This document shows, one piece after another, positions 1-9,632 of a DNA stretch of 22,831 bases (position 1 is its first letter; each line of letters starts with the position of its first letter). Source of the stretch: a virus (Duplodnaviria > Heunggongvirae > Uroviricota > Caudoviricetes); the IMG/VR virus record IMGVR_UViG_3300028789_000005. The stretch is one strand, 5' to 3'. The translations under genes and the position numbers were made by a program. The notes below the pieces were generated by a model. The model saw only the letters and a program-made list of their open reading frames with translations. It did not search any database and was not told the DNA's origin.

Positions 1-441
1 GGGAGGTATGGCGCATCCGGCACTACCCAGGGGGCAATTGACCCCGTTGATGAGAGAGAAGGGGTTCGCCAGAGTCTCTAGTACATTGATTCCCGAAGGG
101 TTGGTGACGTTGATCGCCCCATTGCCGCTCGAGTTGGCGAAGTTCACGGGTGACGACAGCGGGCCTGAGCCATTGACGCTAATGGCCGTTCCAGCGCCAG
201 CCGTATTCACCCATCCGGCGGAAGAGCACACGAATAACGTGTTGCTTACAGTGTTGGTGTACGGTTGCCCATAGTTGACCGAGGTGCACGTCCACAATGG
301 CGACACCGGATCCACCGTGCCTGTGATTGCCGGCCACCGAATTTGCGACGCGGGGTTTATCACAGTCTGCGCGGAGACGGCGAAAGCGGCGCAAAAGAAG
401 AGCAGAAAGCAAAGCAGCGCACGCTTAGATGTACTTGACAT
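1..441 (-). CDS. Tail-region protein with predicted N-terminal signal peptide, 3'-truncated by the window edge (absent from the ORF track)
   Basis: Hand translation from ATG at 441 gives 147 codons with no stop: MSSTSKRALLCFLLFFCAAFAVSA-QTVINPASQIRWPAITGTVDPVSPLWTCTSVNYGQPYTNTVSNTLFVCSSAGW...NCPLGSAGCAIPP. GGAG lies upstream, and the start overlaps the end of the 425-805 gene. Confidence 0.85.
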   Translation of the reverse strand, partial: MSSTSKRALLCFLLFFCAAFAVSAQTVINPASQIRWPAITGTVDPVSPLWTCTSVNYGQPYTNTVSNTLFVCSSAGWVNTAGAGTAISVNGSGPLSSPVNFANSSGNGAINVTNPSGINVLETLANPFSLINGVNCPLGSAGCAIPP

Positions 442-805
442 AAACATTGTCTCCAGTAGCAGTTGCATTGTTGGTCATCGTGATAACGGCTCCGGAGAGC
501 GTAAAATCAATACCGTCGCGTTGTAGGATGCCGTTCCAGTAGAATCCGAATATGAAGTTAGGCACCTGGCTGCATGTGTAAGAGTTTCCAGGTATGACCC
601 CCACGGGGGTCTCCGTGACGGCGTTGGCGGCAATCTGTTCGCCCAGATTCGTGATGATGAAGTCGGCCAAGGCGGGCATCGGTATGATGCCGCCAAGCAT
701 CAGATCCAGCAGGTTCCAATTGTAGTTTGTAGGAACCTGCCAGTTCGGCTGGTTGTACGCCGGAATTTGCAGTCCTATATTCGGAGTCGTCGTCTCACTG
801 GCCAT
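425..805 (-). CDS. Small tail-fibre-associated protein with a C-terminal beta-sandwich-like module
   Basis: 126-aa ORF 3 nt downstream of the tail fibre stop, with AGGA upstream. The C-terminal ETPVG...YWNGILQRDGIDFTLSG module recurs in two neck proteins. Confidence 0.75.
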   Translation of the reverse strand: MASETTTPNIGLQIPAYNQPNWQVPTNYNWNLLDLMLGGIIPMPALADFIITNLGEQIAANAVTETPVGVIPGNSYTCSQVPNFIFGFYWNGILQRDGIDFTLSGAVITMTNNATATGDNVYVKYI

Positions 806-808
806 GAT

Positions 809-1849
809 TTAGTTTCCTATCGCGTAGAACGCCAGTGTGACTGCCTGGTCGAAGTTTGCACCACCACCACCTGTAGGAACGGAGCATTGTAGGAATACTT
901 GTGCTCCGGTGGTGGTTACTGACACCGCGCTGGCGGAAGCTATATCGTTGGCGTGTGCGCTAGGACTTGGCAAGCCTTGTACGGTTACCTGCAGTCCTGG
1001 CACTGCTGTAAAACCGTGTGGAAAGACAATAGCAGCATTCGCAAACTGGTTGCCGGTGGATGGGACGTTGATGCTACCCCACACTTCTATGGTTCCATCA
1101 GGAGAGATTCTGTAACTACCGTTTGAGTTTGTTACGCGTGAAAAACCTGGCGATTGCGGCACAAAGAACCCACCGACGTTCGTCAGCACCTGGCCAGCCG
1201 CACCCGGTGCGGCCAACGTCAGCGTGGTGAACGCTCCGGTCGACGGCGCGGCGGCACCTATGGCGGTGCCTACTATACCGTTAATATCGGATAGCACGGG
1301 CGCGGCTGGAACCAGATTGCTGTTGACGTCGACCTTGAACAGCAATATGCACTCCGCGTTCGGCGACGTATCCAGAGCGCCTGCGCCAATTACATCGCCG
1401 GACCACGTGACTGTTCTCCCGCCCGTGGCATCCTGAGATAGTACCACAGTCAGTAAATCGCCAACTTGCTGATTGATTATCGTTATATCCGCATTACCGG
1501 TGAGTCTTACTTCGAATCCCAGCGACTGCGACATGTCGAACGTTACATTTGGCGCGTACGTCACCAGCTGCAAATTGGCCCTGAAGTCCGCCGACGTCAG
1601 GAAGTTGGCGCACTGGGCGGTAAGCGTAGACAGATTGGAGTCCGACGTAGTGAAGCCCTTGGCAGCGAACGCCGTGAACAGGGCAGTCAGATACGTGGAC
1701 ATCTGGTAGAACACCTTGTTCGCTAGCGGCGAAAGGAACAGGGAGGGGTCCGTCGCTCCTCCCGCGCGCTGTGAGTCGGCCAAGTAGGCCGCATCATTCT
1801 CTTGATTCGCTGCGGTGGGATTCCACTGCAGAAGATTGGTGGTTGCCAT
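809..1849 (-). CDS. Tail fibre protein
   Basis: 346 aa, AAGGAG RBS, directly after DUF2612. N-terminal S..ANK.FYQ baseplate-attachment pattern, internal LTGN...QDATGGRTVTW module, and C-terminal PDGTIEVWG...FPHGF domain typical of fibre tips. Confidence 0.8.
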   Translation of the reverse strand: MATTNLLQWNPTAANQENDAAYLADSQRAGGATDPSLFLSPLANKVFYQMSTYLTALFTAFAAKGFTTSDSNLSTLTAQCANFLTSADFRANLQLVTYAPNVTFDMSQSLGFEVRLTGNADITIINQQVGDLLTVVLSQDATGGRTVTWSGDVIGAGALDTSPNAECILLFKVDVNSNLVPAAPVLSDINGIVGTAIGAAAPSTGAFTTLTLAAPGAAGQVLTNVGGFFVPQSPGFSRVTNSNGSYRISPDGTIEVWGSINVPSTGNQFANAAIVFPHGFTAVPGLQVTVQGLPSPSAHANDIASASAVSVTTTGAQVFLQCSVPTGGGGANFDQAVTLAFYAIGN

Positions 1850-1867: not shown

Positions 1868-2503
1868 TTAGCCGGCCCAGTGTCCCGTGTCGAATCCAGA
1901 TATGAATCCCGGCGAGCTGCCAAATCCGAAGAAGGGCAAGACACCGAACAGGTACGTATAGAGCACGCCCTCGGGACGCGGTACGATGTAGCCGTGCACG
2001 ATTAGATCCTGCAGTATAGATGTGAATGATCCTGTAAGGGTGAGATCCACAGTCATATTCTGATTGTCGATGACCACGATTGTACCGCCAGGAAATAGTT
2101 GCTTCCAGATTGGGTACAGGCTGACAATCGTACCATCCCACTGGTTGGTCGCGATCTTCGCCTTGATGTAGATGCGAAATGTGGCGTCGTCCAGGATTGG
2201 GCTGACTCCGCCGCTTGGCTGGAAGTTCACCGTGCGGAATGCGCCGACCGTGGCTCCTAGCATGTCCAGTTGCGCGCCAATGGCGCTGTCCAGGTCGAGC
2301 GACGTGTCCATTTGAACCAGGCACTGGCTGGCGTCATCGAATTTCTTCAGCAGAACGTAGAGCAACGCGTTCAGCTTCTTGGAATTGGCGTACTGGCTCG
2401 TCAGCAGCCCTATATAGTATCCGATGGGCAGTGTTTCCAGCGGCTCATTGCCGTAGCCTCCGGTGCCATAACCTTGCGTGCCGTAGTACGGGTTGCTACT
2501 CAT
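1868..2503 (-). CDS. Baseplate wedge protein, DUF2612 family
   Basis: 211 aa with DLDSAIGAQLDMLGATVG and LDDATFRIYIKAKI..NQWDGT motifs. ATGA overlap with the baseplate J gene. Confidence 0.85.
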   Translation of the reverse strand: MSSNPYYGTQGYGTGGYGNEPLETLPIGYYIGLLTSQYANSKKLNALLYVLLKKFDDASQCLVQMDTSLDLDSAIGAQLDMLGATVGAFRTVNFQPSGGVSPILDDATFRIYIKAKIATNQWDGTIVSLYPIWKQLFPGGTIVVIDNQNMTVDLTLTGSFTSILQDLIVHGYIVPRPEGVLYTYLFGVLPFFGFGSSPGFISGFDTGHWAG

Positions 2504-3918
2504 ACCGTGACCACTCCTATGTTGCCGGCGATACCCTCAGCGGCATAGTAGAAGTTTGGCATAACGATGTCGACGACGCCGAGCGTGGAGAACGAAACCG
2601 CGCCTCCGGTACTGGCAGCTGTAGTTGGAATTGTCAACGGTATGGTAGTGCCTGACGGGGTTCCAGTCAATGTTCCAGGCGCGATGCCGGGACCAGAGAC
2701 CAGTTGACCGGCTATGATGCCAGTAGCTGAGGCCACTACCATAGACGATGCGGCAAGGCCATACGTGCCCGTGGTAGAAGCCGTTGTTACACCAAGTTGT
2801 ACAGATACTGTTCCGAAGTTCGGCGCGATCAGGTTGGTGTTCACGTTCATGATCTCGAAATAAATAGCTCCGATGGACACAGTCTCGCCAATGGCCAGTT
2901 CGTTTAGGTACGTTACCAACGCAGCCTGCACCGCACTTAGCACGGCACTGTTAGGCGTAGTACCGTAGCCAGTCAACGTGGTGAGCACGAATATGGGATA
3001 CACCGTTGGCAAAAAGAAGCTGATGTCCTCGGTCACGCCAGTATTTGGATCAATCACTGGATTCGTCGTGGTACCGTTGGTGAAGCAACCGATCGTCTTT
3101 TTCTGGTAGATCGCCGTGGCCACACTTAGTACGTTGGTGCATTGCACGACCATTGAGATGGAGTGGGGCGGGTTGCCCCAACTGTCCACGGCTCCCGTCG
3201 GATTCTCGATAGAAGACCCTGGGCCACCTGGCGTGGGGTAACCCGGAGCAACGCGAATGACTCCGGGTGCGGCTAAAATGGCAGCTATGGTGGATGCCAC
3301 AGGAGTTAGAGATGGCAGCGCCACTGACACCGCTTGACGCGCACGCAGACTGGAGTCGGACTCCACTACGTCGCCCACAGTCGCTGCTGTTGGATTGGTG
3401 ACAGTACTCCAACCAGACGTCGGCGTGTTGATGACGTTGACCTGCCCCGGCTCGGCGGCAATAGCTCCTGGAGTGGTGCAAGTCGCCGTTACGCTGATTA
3501 TCCCGCTGAGAGGAAATGTAACCGTCGAAGGAAGTGCCCACAGGTTACCATTCTGATCCTGTGCGAATCCGTTCGTAATAGTCGACAATCCTGTGCCAAC
3601 TAGATTCAGCAGTACGGTAGAGAATGTGAACGCCTCGCGCGCCAGCCCGTTCATCTTCACTTGCCTATCTAGGCCAGCTCCCACGGCCGTTTGTGGCGAT
3701 GACTGGTTGTACGCCAACTGTGCAGCCTGCATGGTGTCGGATTGCTTCAGGGAGATGATGCTCAACAGCTGGTAGATGGCCGAGTCTGGGCCAACATACT
3801 GATTGATGCCATATATGTTCAAGAACGCTTGCAGGTTGTCGGCAAGGATCGACGGGTACGAGGGAACGGTGAGTCCGCTCGCCGTTACGGACGGTGGAGC
3901 ATAGGCGGGTGTGCTCAT
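2500..3918 (-). CDS. Baseplate J-like wedge protein
   Basis: 472 aa with A.GAGLDRQV..NGL.R, ATCTTPGAIAA, ESDSSLRAR and YLNELAIGETV motifs. AAGGAG RBS; canonical position between the gp25-like and DUF2612 genes. Confidence 0.9.
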   Translation of the reverse strand: MSTPAYAPPSVTASGLTVPSYPSILADNLQAFLNIYGINQYVGPDSAIYQLLSIISLKQSDTMQAAQLAYNQSSPQTAVGAGLDRQVKMNGLAREAFTFSTVLLNLVGTGLSTITNGFAQDQNGNLWALPSTVTFPLSGIISVTATCTTPGAIAAEPGQVNVINTPTSGWSTVTNPTAATVGDVVESDSSLRARQAVSVALPSLTPVASTIAAILAAPGVIRVAPGYPTPGGPGSSIENPTGAVDSWGNPPHSISMVVQCTNVLSVATAIYQKKTIGCFTNGTTTNPVIDPNTGVTEDISFFLPTVYPIFVLTTLTGYGTTPNSAVLSAVQAALVTYLNELAIGETVSIGAIYFEIMNVNTNLIAPNFGTVSVQLGVTTASTTGTYGLAASSMVVASATGIIAGQLVSGPGIAPGTLTGTPSGTTIPLTIPTTAASTGGAVSFSTLGVVDIVMPNFYYAAEGIAGNIGVVTV

Positions 3919-8916: not shown

Positions 8917-9164
8917 CAGTTTCCTTTCGCCGCATGCGCCCTGACGCGCCGCATGTTCTCTTCTTTGGTGTCCAGGTACTCCAACACATCGAGCAAGTCC
9001 CCGATGTCGTATGTACCGTCGAACATCTCATGCTGCCGCCAGAGACCGGCAGCGACGGGTTGCCACAGGAAGGCGTTCAGGGTTGGAAACCCCGCCACCT
9101 CGAATCCTGGTCCGTCCCCGTCGTCACCCGGCATCACAAACCAGGGGCGGTGGACTCGAAAAAA
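8916..9164 (-). CDS. Tail assembly chaperone frameshift extension (GT-like segment)
   Basis: The -1 frame is open from the T TTT TTC slippery site to TGA at 8916 (FLWQPVAAGLWRQHEMFDGTYDIGDLLDVLEYLD). An ATG at 9134 overlapping the chaperone stop is an alternative entry. Confidence 0.7.
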   Translation of the reverse strand, partial: FFRVHRPWFVMPGDDGDGPGFEVAGFPTLNAFLWQPVAAGLWRQHEMFDGTYDIGDLLDVLEYLDTKEENMRRVRAHAAKGN

Positions 9165-9619
9165 GCGCCGAAGCAGAACACCAGGACCTCGGACACCAGC
9201 TGCATCACGAGACCGACGTCGTCCCGCACGCCGTAACCATCCTTGGTCCATACACCGCCGTCCGTCATAATGGGCATGGCATTTCCGTTCTCATCCTTCT
9301 TCGACGCCACCTTCAAGCACGCCGTCTGGATGAACTGGAAGTCAGAGAACTCCACACCACCAGACAGGACAGTGAACGCCAGAGCGCGCACCCGGTCCTC
9401 GCCGCTGATGGCCGGTTGTTCCTCGGTTGGCTGCTCCGCGACCTGCTCTACAGACCCGCGCCGCTTGGAAGCTGCCTCTAACTCCCGTTCGGCGCGCTCC
9501 TGCATCATTCGCATGCTGATGCTCATCATACGCATGAAGATGAAGCTGCCCACGTCTGGCGACAGCTTGCGGACCTCGTACGACGCGCCCTTCAACTCCA
9601 CTACCTTGCTTCGTGACAT
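9134..9619 (-). CDS. Tail assembly chaperone (G-like)
   Basis: 161 aa between the tube and tape measure genes, AGGAG RBS, slippery heptamer near the 3' end. Confidence 0.8.
   Translation of the reverse strand: MSRSKVVELKGASYEVRKLSPDVGSFIFMRMMSISMRMMQERAERELEAASKRRGSVEQVAEQPTEEQPAISGEDRVRALAFTVLSGGVEFSDFQFIQTACLKVASKKDENGNAMPIMTDGGVWTKDGYGVRDDVGLVMQLVSEVLVFCFGAFFESTAPGL
9158..9164 (-). promoter_or_regulatory. -1 programmed ribosomal frameshift heptamer TTTTTTC
   Basis: The minus strand reads GCT TTT TTC GAG in the chaperone frame (X XXY YYZ). A -1 shift enters the 8916 ORF frame (F-F-R-V-H-R-P-W). Confidence 0.7.
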
Positions 9620-9632
9620 TTCTTGCTCCTTA

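Follow-up and report, generated by a model that had tools for sequence, protein, structure and literature searches.

The stretch of DNA analysed here (the window; 22,831 nucleotides) is the minus strand of G000:C1:2322-25152 and lies within a 101,166-bp IMG/VR virus record (IMGVR_UViG_3300028789_000005), which has a GC content of 56% and is complete by the CheckV estimate. The gene in question, P0001, begins on the minus strand of the window with an ATG at positions 441-439, and its open frame exits the window at position 1. A GGAG ribosome-binding site (window 451..454, minus strand), read from the sequence, is located 9 nt upstream of this ATG. Further in-frame ATGs are present at 468 and 447, and the use of either would only lengthen the n-region of the predicted signal peptide. 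A downstream start yielding a cytoplasmic P0001 isoform was considered and dropped; the single candidate, a GTG at residue 27, is not preceded by a ribosome-binding site. The first-pass annotation, which covered the first 147 residues only, described a general secretory (Sec)-type signal peptide and cysteine (Cys) pairs in a gene overlapping its upstream neighbour. The 17-nt overlap of the P0001 start with the stop of that neighbour, which encodes a 126-amino acid (aa) protein (425-805, minus strand), is present as described. A frame closing right beyond the window was named as grounds for giving up the proposal; in the full record the frame runs for 1505 codons (G000:C1:24712-29229), and P0001 opens a cassette of three genes, P0001-P0002-P0003.

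The signal peptide of P0001 is predicted to comprise residues 1-24 (window 370..441, minus strand). It was assessed by the Sec/signal peptidase I pattern of a positive n-region, an uncharged hydrophobic h-region ~7-15 residues long, and small side chains at the -3 and -1 positions of the cut site. The N-terminus matches this pattern throughout, with MSSTSKR (K6, R7) as a basic n-region, a h-region of 15 uncharged hydrophobic residues, and a V-S-A|Q site, where the bar marks the predicted cut. The Sec-type leader claimed in the first-pass annotation was thus found in the sequence, and it is conserved in homologues. A lipoprotein or twin-arginine translocation (Tat) signal was ruled out from the sequence, as Cys11 and Cys17 lack the lipobox context [LVI][ASTVI][GAS]C, and the n-region contains K-R, not R-R. 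When the 126 open reading frames (ORFs) of the 101-kb genome were ordered by a crude signal-peptide score, P0001, P0002 and P0003 took ranks 1, 2 and 4. Rank 3 was a 160-aa early-region ORF outside the window (G000:C1:71726-72208, minus strand), with a textbook leader ending ASA|Q, which may be a small exported early protein. A small leader-bearing protein resembling it is encoded in one related locus (L028, at 7395).

Whether homologues keep the leader bore directly on the first-pass proposal. An exhaustive HMMER search with P0001 residues 1-175 returned 157 representative clusters, and the leader was counted over the 138 listed proteins with a recognisable 'INP..QI.WP' motif. A hydrophobic leader precedes the N-terminal module in 136 of these, with the module starting at residue 19-30 in nearly all, and the gene calls of the two leaderless homologues are apparently truncated. 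Leaders are also present in those relatives of the P0001 body that have unrelated N-terminal modules. The leader is kept as a physico-chemical pattern while its sequence is not conserved, as would be expected of a signal peptide rather than of an interface. A small residue followed by glutamine (Gln) stands directly before the module in 123 of the 138 homologues. In a 400-kb sample of Terriglobus roseus DSM 18391 (L133-L152; 20 x 20 kb), a member of the probable host family, 12 of 44 leaders predicted with a crude heuristic expose Gln, compared with a Gln background of 4%, and the A|Q cut site of P0001 therefore looks host-adapted. The T. roseus leaders also suggest a hint of a Q-rule-like tendency outside the Bacteroidota, the Q-rule having been described as specific to Bacteroidetes (PMC5837995). 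Taken on its sequence pattern, the leader of P0001 appears to be real and conserved.

Both Cys pairs noted earlier in the window were confirmed, namely Cys52/Cys72 (window 286-288 and 226-228) and Cys136/Cys143, and Cys52 and Cys72 are invariant among the module homologues. Mature P0001 contains 38 Cys, which form 19 consecutive close pairs. The 16 Cys of mature P0002 and the 20 of mature P0003 are likewise all consecutively close-paired. With random Cys placement, the pairing seen in P0001 was reached in none of 100,000 trials (permutation p < 1e-5), and the corresponding values for P0002 and P0003 were 6e-4 and 3e-4. The 18 upstream structural proteins contain 0.74% Cys, unpaired. When the pair positions were scored across homologues, both members of the pair were Cys in 70 cells and neither was in 38, while 9 cells had a single Cys; Cys residues are thus gained and lost pairwise.

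A survey of Cys parity was performed over 46 related viral loci, on proteins of at least 200 aa containing Cys and with mature counts for the leader proteins. The Cys count was even in 45 of 47 leader-bearing proteins versus 89 of 216 leaderless ones, and the ratio of within-pair to between-pair Cys spacing was 0.25 versus 1.2. This association of leader and paired Cys is what export to an oxidising compartment would predict. Because the secretion signals look genuine and the paired Cys are many, the proteins probably fold outside the cytoplasm. Searches for a phage-encoded DsbA, thioredoxin or signal peptidase found none, and the phage would therefore rely on those of the host. The "exported, disulfide-stabilised" part of the first-pass proposal has strong comparative support in the leaders of 136 of 138 homologues, the invariant Cys52 and Cys72, the pairwise change of Cys, and the tracking of paired Cys with the leader across the 46 loci. 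We consider it very probable that the cassette proteins are exported, cleaved and disulfide-bonded.

Behind the leader, P0001 carries an N-terminal module of 60 residues with the signature 'INP..QI.WP / C..NYGQPY..C..GW' (residues 25-84; window 190..369, minus strand), matched by 157 representative clusters. Its invariant columns are W36, P48, C52, G58, Y61, C72 and G76. A second module begins at residue 85 (window 1..189, minus strand, for residues 85-147, including Cys136-Cys143), and the gene continues to residue 1505 at G000:C1:25153-29229. This second module sits behind other N-terminal modules in the relatives P0007, P0008 and P0010. The whole protein is a mosaic in the order leader, Cys-pair module, second module, body, collar region and C-terminal domain. 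The body is shared piecewise with different relatives, and the C-terminal domain is also found on otherwise different proteins, one of them with PF13472. A collar motif, 'IG...P..GAFTTL', is common to P0001 residues 1291-1383, P0002 residues 73-170 and a leaderless 346-aa fibre encoded nearby. The N-terminal module carries C-terminal parts of 70-1500 aa across the 157 clusters, and in the viral loci these parts reach 2824 aa. An N-terminal anchor that stays constant while the distal domains vary is the arrangement of tail fibres and tailspikes. A C-terminal domain for type IX secretion, or some other common sorting signal at the C-terminus, was considered and dropped, as there was no Pfam match and the C-termini of relatives differ.

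The structural models were informative for parts of the cassette. P0002 (940 aa) is modelled in the Atlas as a beta-helix of the GH28/pectate-lyase/tailspike-like type. The Atlas model of P0003 (720 aa) is a Pel9A-like beta-helix and is structurally closest to bacterial proteins from Acidobacteriota. For P0001, the mean AlphaFold2 (AF2) predicted local distance difference test (pLDDT) score was 51 over residues 25-420 and 41 over residues 530-1505, and reached ~88-92 over the N-terminal module. The usable parts of the AF2 models are this module, residues ~169-219 and ~839-1094, and the C-terminal domain, so that confidence is confined to the N-terminal module and three small beta-barrel domains. 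Pfam and PHROG scans assigned P0001-P0003 to no family and detected no muralytic domain in them. In sequence searches against solved structures, P0001 and P0002 were without a match, and P0003 had only two, both at chance level (E 0.06-0.3, splicing factors). A tblastn search of P0001 against 50,697 GenBank phage records gave no match, and a Foldseek search of the PDB with the model of the P0001 N-terminus returned no structure at E <= 0.001. On their architecture, we regard P0001-P0003 as putative modular proteins of tail-fibre or tailspike type.

The genes upstream of the cassette lie on the same strand of the window. A baseplate wedge (J-like) protein (window 2500..3918, minus strand; phrog_6, E = 9.5e-52), ~42% identical to annotated baseplate J proteins of cultured phages, is followed by a DUF2612 baseplate protein (window 1868..2503, minus strand; Pfam E = 2.9e-30; phrog_587). 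The next gene encodes the leaderless 346-aa tail fibre (window 809..1849, minus strand), which consists of a conserved 188-aa N-terminal part, the 'IG...P..GAFTTL' collar and an H-lectin-like C-terminal knob. The leaderless 126-aa protein whose stop overlaps the P0001 start, here w126 (window 425..805, minus strand), is the conserved upstream neighbour of leader genes. Residues 1-45 of w126 are nearly invariant across 22 phages, and its beta-rich C-terminal half is variable. A complex prediction for w126 and the N-terminal module scored 0.00 and was uninformative either way.

From baseplate J through DUF2612, fibre and w126 to the cassette and an endolysin, the genes follow one another on one strand, overlapping or nearly abutting. 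P0002 starts 2 nt beyond the P0001 stop, P0002 and P0003 each have their own leader, and one-base overlaps join the P0003 start to the P0002 stop and the endolysin start to the P0003 stop. The endolysin-like protein contains a PG_binding_3 domain, and the small membrane and lipoprotein-like genes beyond it are typical of a lysis cassette. The P0001-P0003 cassette, 9.5 kb in size, is predicted to be late-expressed. Its position downstream of the baseplate genes is that of fibre and tailspike genes, with exceptions among relatives in L153, L003 and one further Granulicella-type prophage contig. At the ends of the record, outside the window, ~1.2 kb is repeated (G000:C1:1-1277 versus 99806-101166) with an identity of only 93-95%; this is an imperfect terminal repeat or the assembly of two variants, not an exact terminal redundancy.

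The N-terminal module was found in 46 IMG/VR viral loci, and the order J, DUF2612, fibre, w126 and leader gene recurs in ~17 loci. To count what follows w126, loci were collected with w126 as the seed, a search unbiased for the module, and 14 of them had downstream sequence. In all 14, the gene after w126 was leader-bearing, and in 12 it had the same module; its start usually overlapped the w126 stop. Beyond the J lineage, the commonest companions of the module are w126-like and fibre-like families. Four loci (L025, L026, L035 and L040, at ~9000-9630) encode a fibre consisting of the 188-aa N-terminal part only, without collar or lectin-like knob, and in L020 the C-terminal knob of the fibre is carried by a leader-bearing 345-aa protein. 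In two other lineages, runs of four leader-bearing, Cys-rich proteins are encoded between Cys-free virion-like proteins and a lysozyme gene.

One recombinant relative is encoded in L153 (L153:1-8485). Here, P0001 residues 530-1505 and at least eight downstream genes are 100% identical in protein, whereas the N-terminal ~500 residues are divergent and begin with another first module, and other genes lie upstream. The recombination joint is inside the gene. The upstream genes of L153 are two other leader-bearing genes (528 and 333 aa) instead of baseplate genes.

A cultured relative is available in Tunturi 1, a podovirus of Acidobacteriota isolated on Tunturiibacter psychrotolerans (PP887698; PMC11924767). 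The large Cys-paired proteins gp12, gp13, gp14 and gp17 and the small gp16 have clear leaders, while the small gp15 has only a doubtful hydrophobic start. Together, gp12-gp17 occupy ~12.7 kb of the 63-kb genome, and two of them were annotated by the depositor, as a tail spike and as a virion structural protein. Gp17 is homologous to P0003, and the N-terminal module of gp12 matches that of P0007, a relative of P0001. Like the present cassette, Tunturi 1 thus encodes a series of large Cys-paired proteins whose leaders have A|Q at the cut, and this series is flanked by a tail protein gene and the lysis genes. It differs in its podovirus lineage and its 63-kb genome, and lacks a homologue of the P0001 N-terminal module or body. 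The terms 'signal peptide' and 'mass spectrometry' are absent from the text of the Tunturi 1 paper (PMC11924767). The short N-terminal motif of w126 also occurs directly behind the signal peptide of Tunturi 1 gp13, as a weak match (pairwise E = 0.006). In a Tunturi-type-related lineage (L004:2679-8551 and L155:6075-10004), the virion-like proteins encoded immediately ahead of the leader cluster are for the most part Cys-free. The Cys-free stretch amounts to ~1,950 residues in five proteins in L004 and ~1,180 in four in L155, next to leader proteins with 11-40 Cys each. As Tunturi 1 and Tunturi 2 are in culture, the question of virion association is directly testable.

A pattern scan of GTDB did not find the N-terminal module, and 404 Acidobacteriaceae genomes gave one weak match to it. 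An origin from a host-derived secreted gene was rejected on the ground that the module is not in the sampled host genomes. A 404-kb contig carries a distant P0001 relative in a prophage-like region, and the GreA encoded on this contig shares 92-94% identity with the GreA proteins of Granulicella and other Acidobacteriaceae. The host probably belongs to the Acidobacteriaceae, and the virus is probably a soil phage of Acidobacteria.

The cassette was compared with known systems. With the virion tailspike and fibre depolymerases (P22 gp9, LKA1 gp49, phi297 gp61, AP22 gp54 and the CBA120 tailspike proteins) it shares the location after baseplate genes, a conserved N-terminal module with exchangeable C-termini and, in the models of P0002 and P0003, beta-helix glycanase folds. 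It departs from them in a defining feature: the tailspikes known lack a signal peptide and have their folding in the cytoplasm, whereas the Sec leader of the cassette proteins is conserved and their Cys pairs number 8-19. Export is known for a receptor-binding virion protein in the g3p of filamentous phages, which has a Sec signal peptide and periplasmic disulfides. Those phages assemble at the membrane and are extruded, while the present phage is tailed, with baseplate genes and a holin-endolysin-type lysis cassette, and its proteins have no sequence relationship to g3p. Sec-dependent and signal-anchor-release (SAR) endolysins and spanins are late proteins that are Sec-exported before lysis and in place when the holin fires; they are small and act on the wall or membranes, whereas the cassette proteins are very large and fibre-like. 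The architecture is thus like that of tailspikes and fibres, and the route like that of filamentous g3p or Sec-exported lysis proteins. Phages of Porphyromonas gingivalis encode proteins of unknown function in which predicted signal peptidase I cleavage exposes an N-terminal Gln (PMC10367356, PMC5837995), in a host of another phylum, and these have not been described as tail-fibre-like or Cys-paired. Signal-peptide proteins with Gln after the cut have therefore been noted before, whereas Sec leaders on fibre- or spike-like proteins of tailed phages were not found in the literature.

We propose the following sequence of events. The host Sec system would export P0001, P0002 and P0003, and signal peptidase I would cut them (P0001 at VSA|Q), exposing an N-terminal Gln. 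The periplasmic oxidation machinery of the host would then make the many short-range disulfides. The products would be glycan-binding and glycan-cutting host-recognition proteins of the phage, which would fold in the periplasm and dock, via the conserved N-terminal module, on particles built in the cytoplasm. Docking would take place when holin lesions or lysis merge the two compartments. The leader, the paired Cys, the synteny and the modularity are read from the sequence itself; export, cleavage and disulfide bonding are very probable. Whether the proteins act in receptor binding or as depolymerases and join the virion at lysis, which is one of the two functional readings in the first-pass annotation, appears to us about evenly balanced. 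Docking is favoured because of the tail-fibre position, the combination of an anchor with a variable body, and the motifs shared with the leaderless fibre. It is also favoured because fibres are cut to the 188-aa base in four loci, because the distribution is phage-only, and because the leader genes take up 9-20% of the genome. In L153, furthermore, the N-terminal ~500 residues and the upstream genes change together while the rest is identical, which again speaks for docking.

Several points weigh against docking on the virion. Particles of tailed phages assemble in the cytoplasm, and in the literature that we searched, a Sec-exported fibre or spike of a tailed phage is without precedent. Virion proteomics was found for no family member, so virion association is inferred, and the signal-peptide calls come from a home-made heuristic together with conservation, not from SignalP. 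Most of P0001 was not modelled confidently. The module is also accompanied by several unrelated upstream gene sets, and no specific docking partner is therefore evident. In L153, L003 and the further Granulicella-type prophage contig, the leader genes are not beside recognisable baseplate genes. Finally, the phage already has the leaderless 346-aa fibre with its lectin-like knob and is thus not short of a receptor-binding protein.

The foremost alternative is that the proteins are exported and disulfide-bonded but never become virion parts. They would instead be free enzymes and lectins, in the periplasm or released, that cut or bind host exopolysaccharide, capsule or lipopolysaccharide late in infection, allowing progeny to escape the slime and avoid trapping on debris. 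Their role would be receptor-destroying or lysis-assisting, like that of an exported glycanase of the WceF type. WceF of Pantoea stewartii is a Tat-exported bacterial glycanase with a tailspike fold (PMC7949094) and sets a precedent for export of a tailspike-like architecture. It acts on exopolysaccharide, is encoded in a bacterial exopolysaccharide gene cluster and is exported folded by Tat, whereas the cassette is phage-encoded, has Sec-type leaders and is absent from the sampled host genomes. The evidence for export and disulfides fits free enzymes equally well, and further points for them are the glycanase-like beta-helices of P0002 and P0003, the bacterial (Acidobacteriota) structural neighbours of the latter, and the position of the cassette abutting the lysis genes. 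The presence of a separate leaderless fibre and the three contigs with leader genes away from baseplate genes point the same way. Against this stands the conserved N-terminal module with exchangeable C-terminal parts, which is the signature of particle-anchored receptor-binding proteins and is absent from the sampled host genomes. The first leader gene is, moreover, tightly coupled to the fibre locus and overlaps w126, and 9-20% of a lytic genome would be an unusual outlay on accessory enzymes. We regard free enzymes as a possible but less likely account than particle-docked proteins.

The first-pass annotation had also raised a late-expressed surface or exclusion factor. The proteins would then be morons or conversion factors in the host envelope, like lambda Lom and Bor or T5 Llp, of no service to virions. 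Signal-peptide genes are known in or beside tail-fibre regions, as for lambda Lom (PMC12309495), the Porphyromonas phages have unexplained signal-peptide proteins with Gln after the cut (PMC10367356), and relatives of the cassette lie in prophage-like regions of Acidobacteriaceae contigs. The known factors are small outer-membrane beta-barrels or lipoproteins with their own expression, whereas P0001 has 1505 aa, lacks a lipobox and overlaps the upstream late gene. Proteins of 700-2800 aa with modelled beta-helices and the fibre collar motif also do not resemble the exclusion factors that are known. The genes are also co-oriented and overlapping with late structural and lysis genes, with no space for their own promoter, and the host genomes and prophages sampled are essentially free of the N-terminal module. 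Synteny, modular architecture and genome share favour a putative receptor-binding or depolymerase role over an exclusion factor, which we consider improbable. Least probable of all is a hydrophobic N-terminus that is no working export signal, but a segment buried in the baseplate joint of a cytoplasmic fibre or an uncleaved membrane anchor: cytoplasmic assembly as the rule for tailed phages and leader calls made without SignalP would allow it, whereas conservation as a pattern and not a sequence, the conserved small-x-small|Gln site, the even, locally paired and co-varying Cys confined to leader proteins, and a 15-residue h-region short for a membrane span all argue against it.

Returning to docked host-recognition proteins, we tentatively extend the proposal, at somewhat short of even confidence, to tailed phages of Acidobacteria and perhaps of other soil bacteria. 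These phages may use a two-compartment assembly, in which heads, tails and baseplates would be made in the cytoplasm, while Sec-exported receptor-binding fibres and spikes would be oxidised and folded in the periplasm and dock on the baseplate only at holin lesions or after lysis, with the Cys-pair module as the docking element. If the proteins are virion parts, a large and abundant group of soil phages would be an exception to the textbook view of assembly wholly within the reducing cytoplasm. Host Sec, signal peptidase and disulfide-forming enzymes would then be host factors for infectivity, which would be gained only at lysis, and host-range predictors that discard signal-peptide proteins would miss true receptor-binding proteins. 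If they are free enzymes, these phages would spend 9-20% of their genomes on secreted polysaccharide-active proteins, which would bear on the turnover of slime and carbon in acidic soils. Either way, the family would be a source of stable, disulfide-rich glycan-binding and glycan-cutting proteins.

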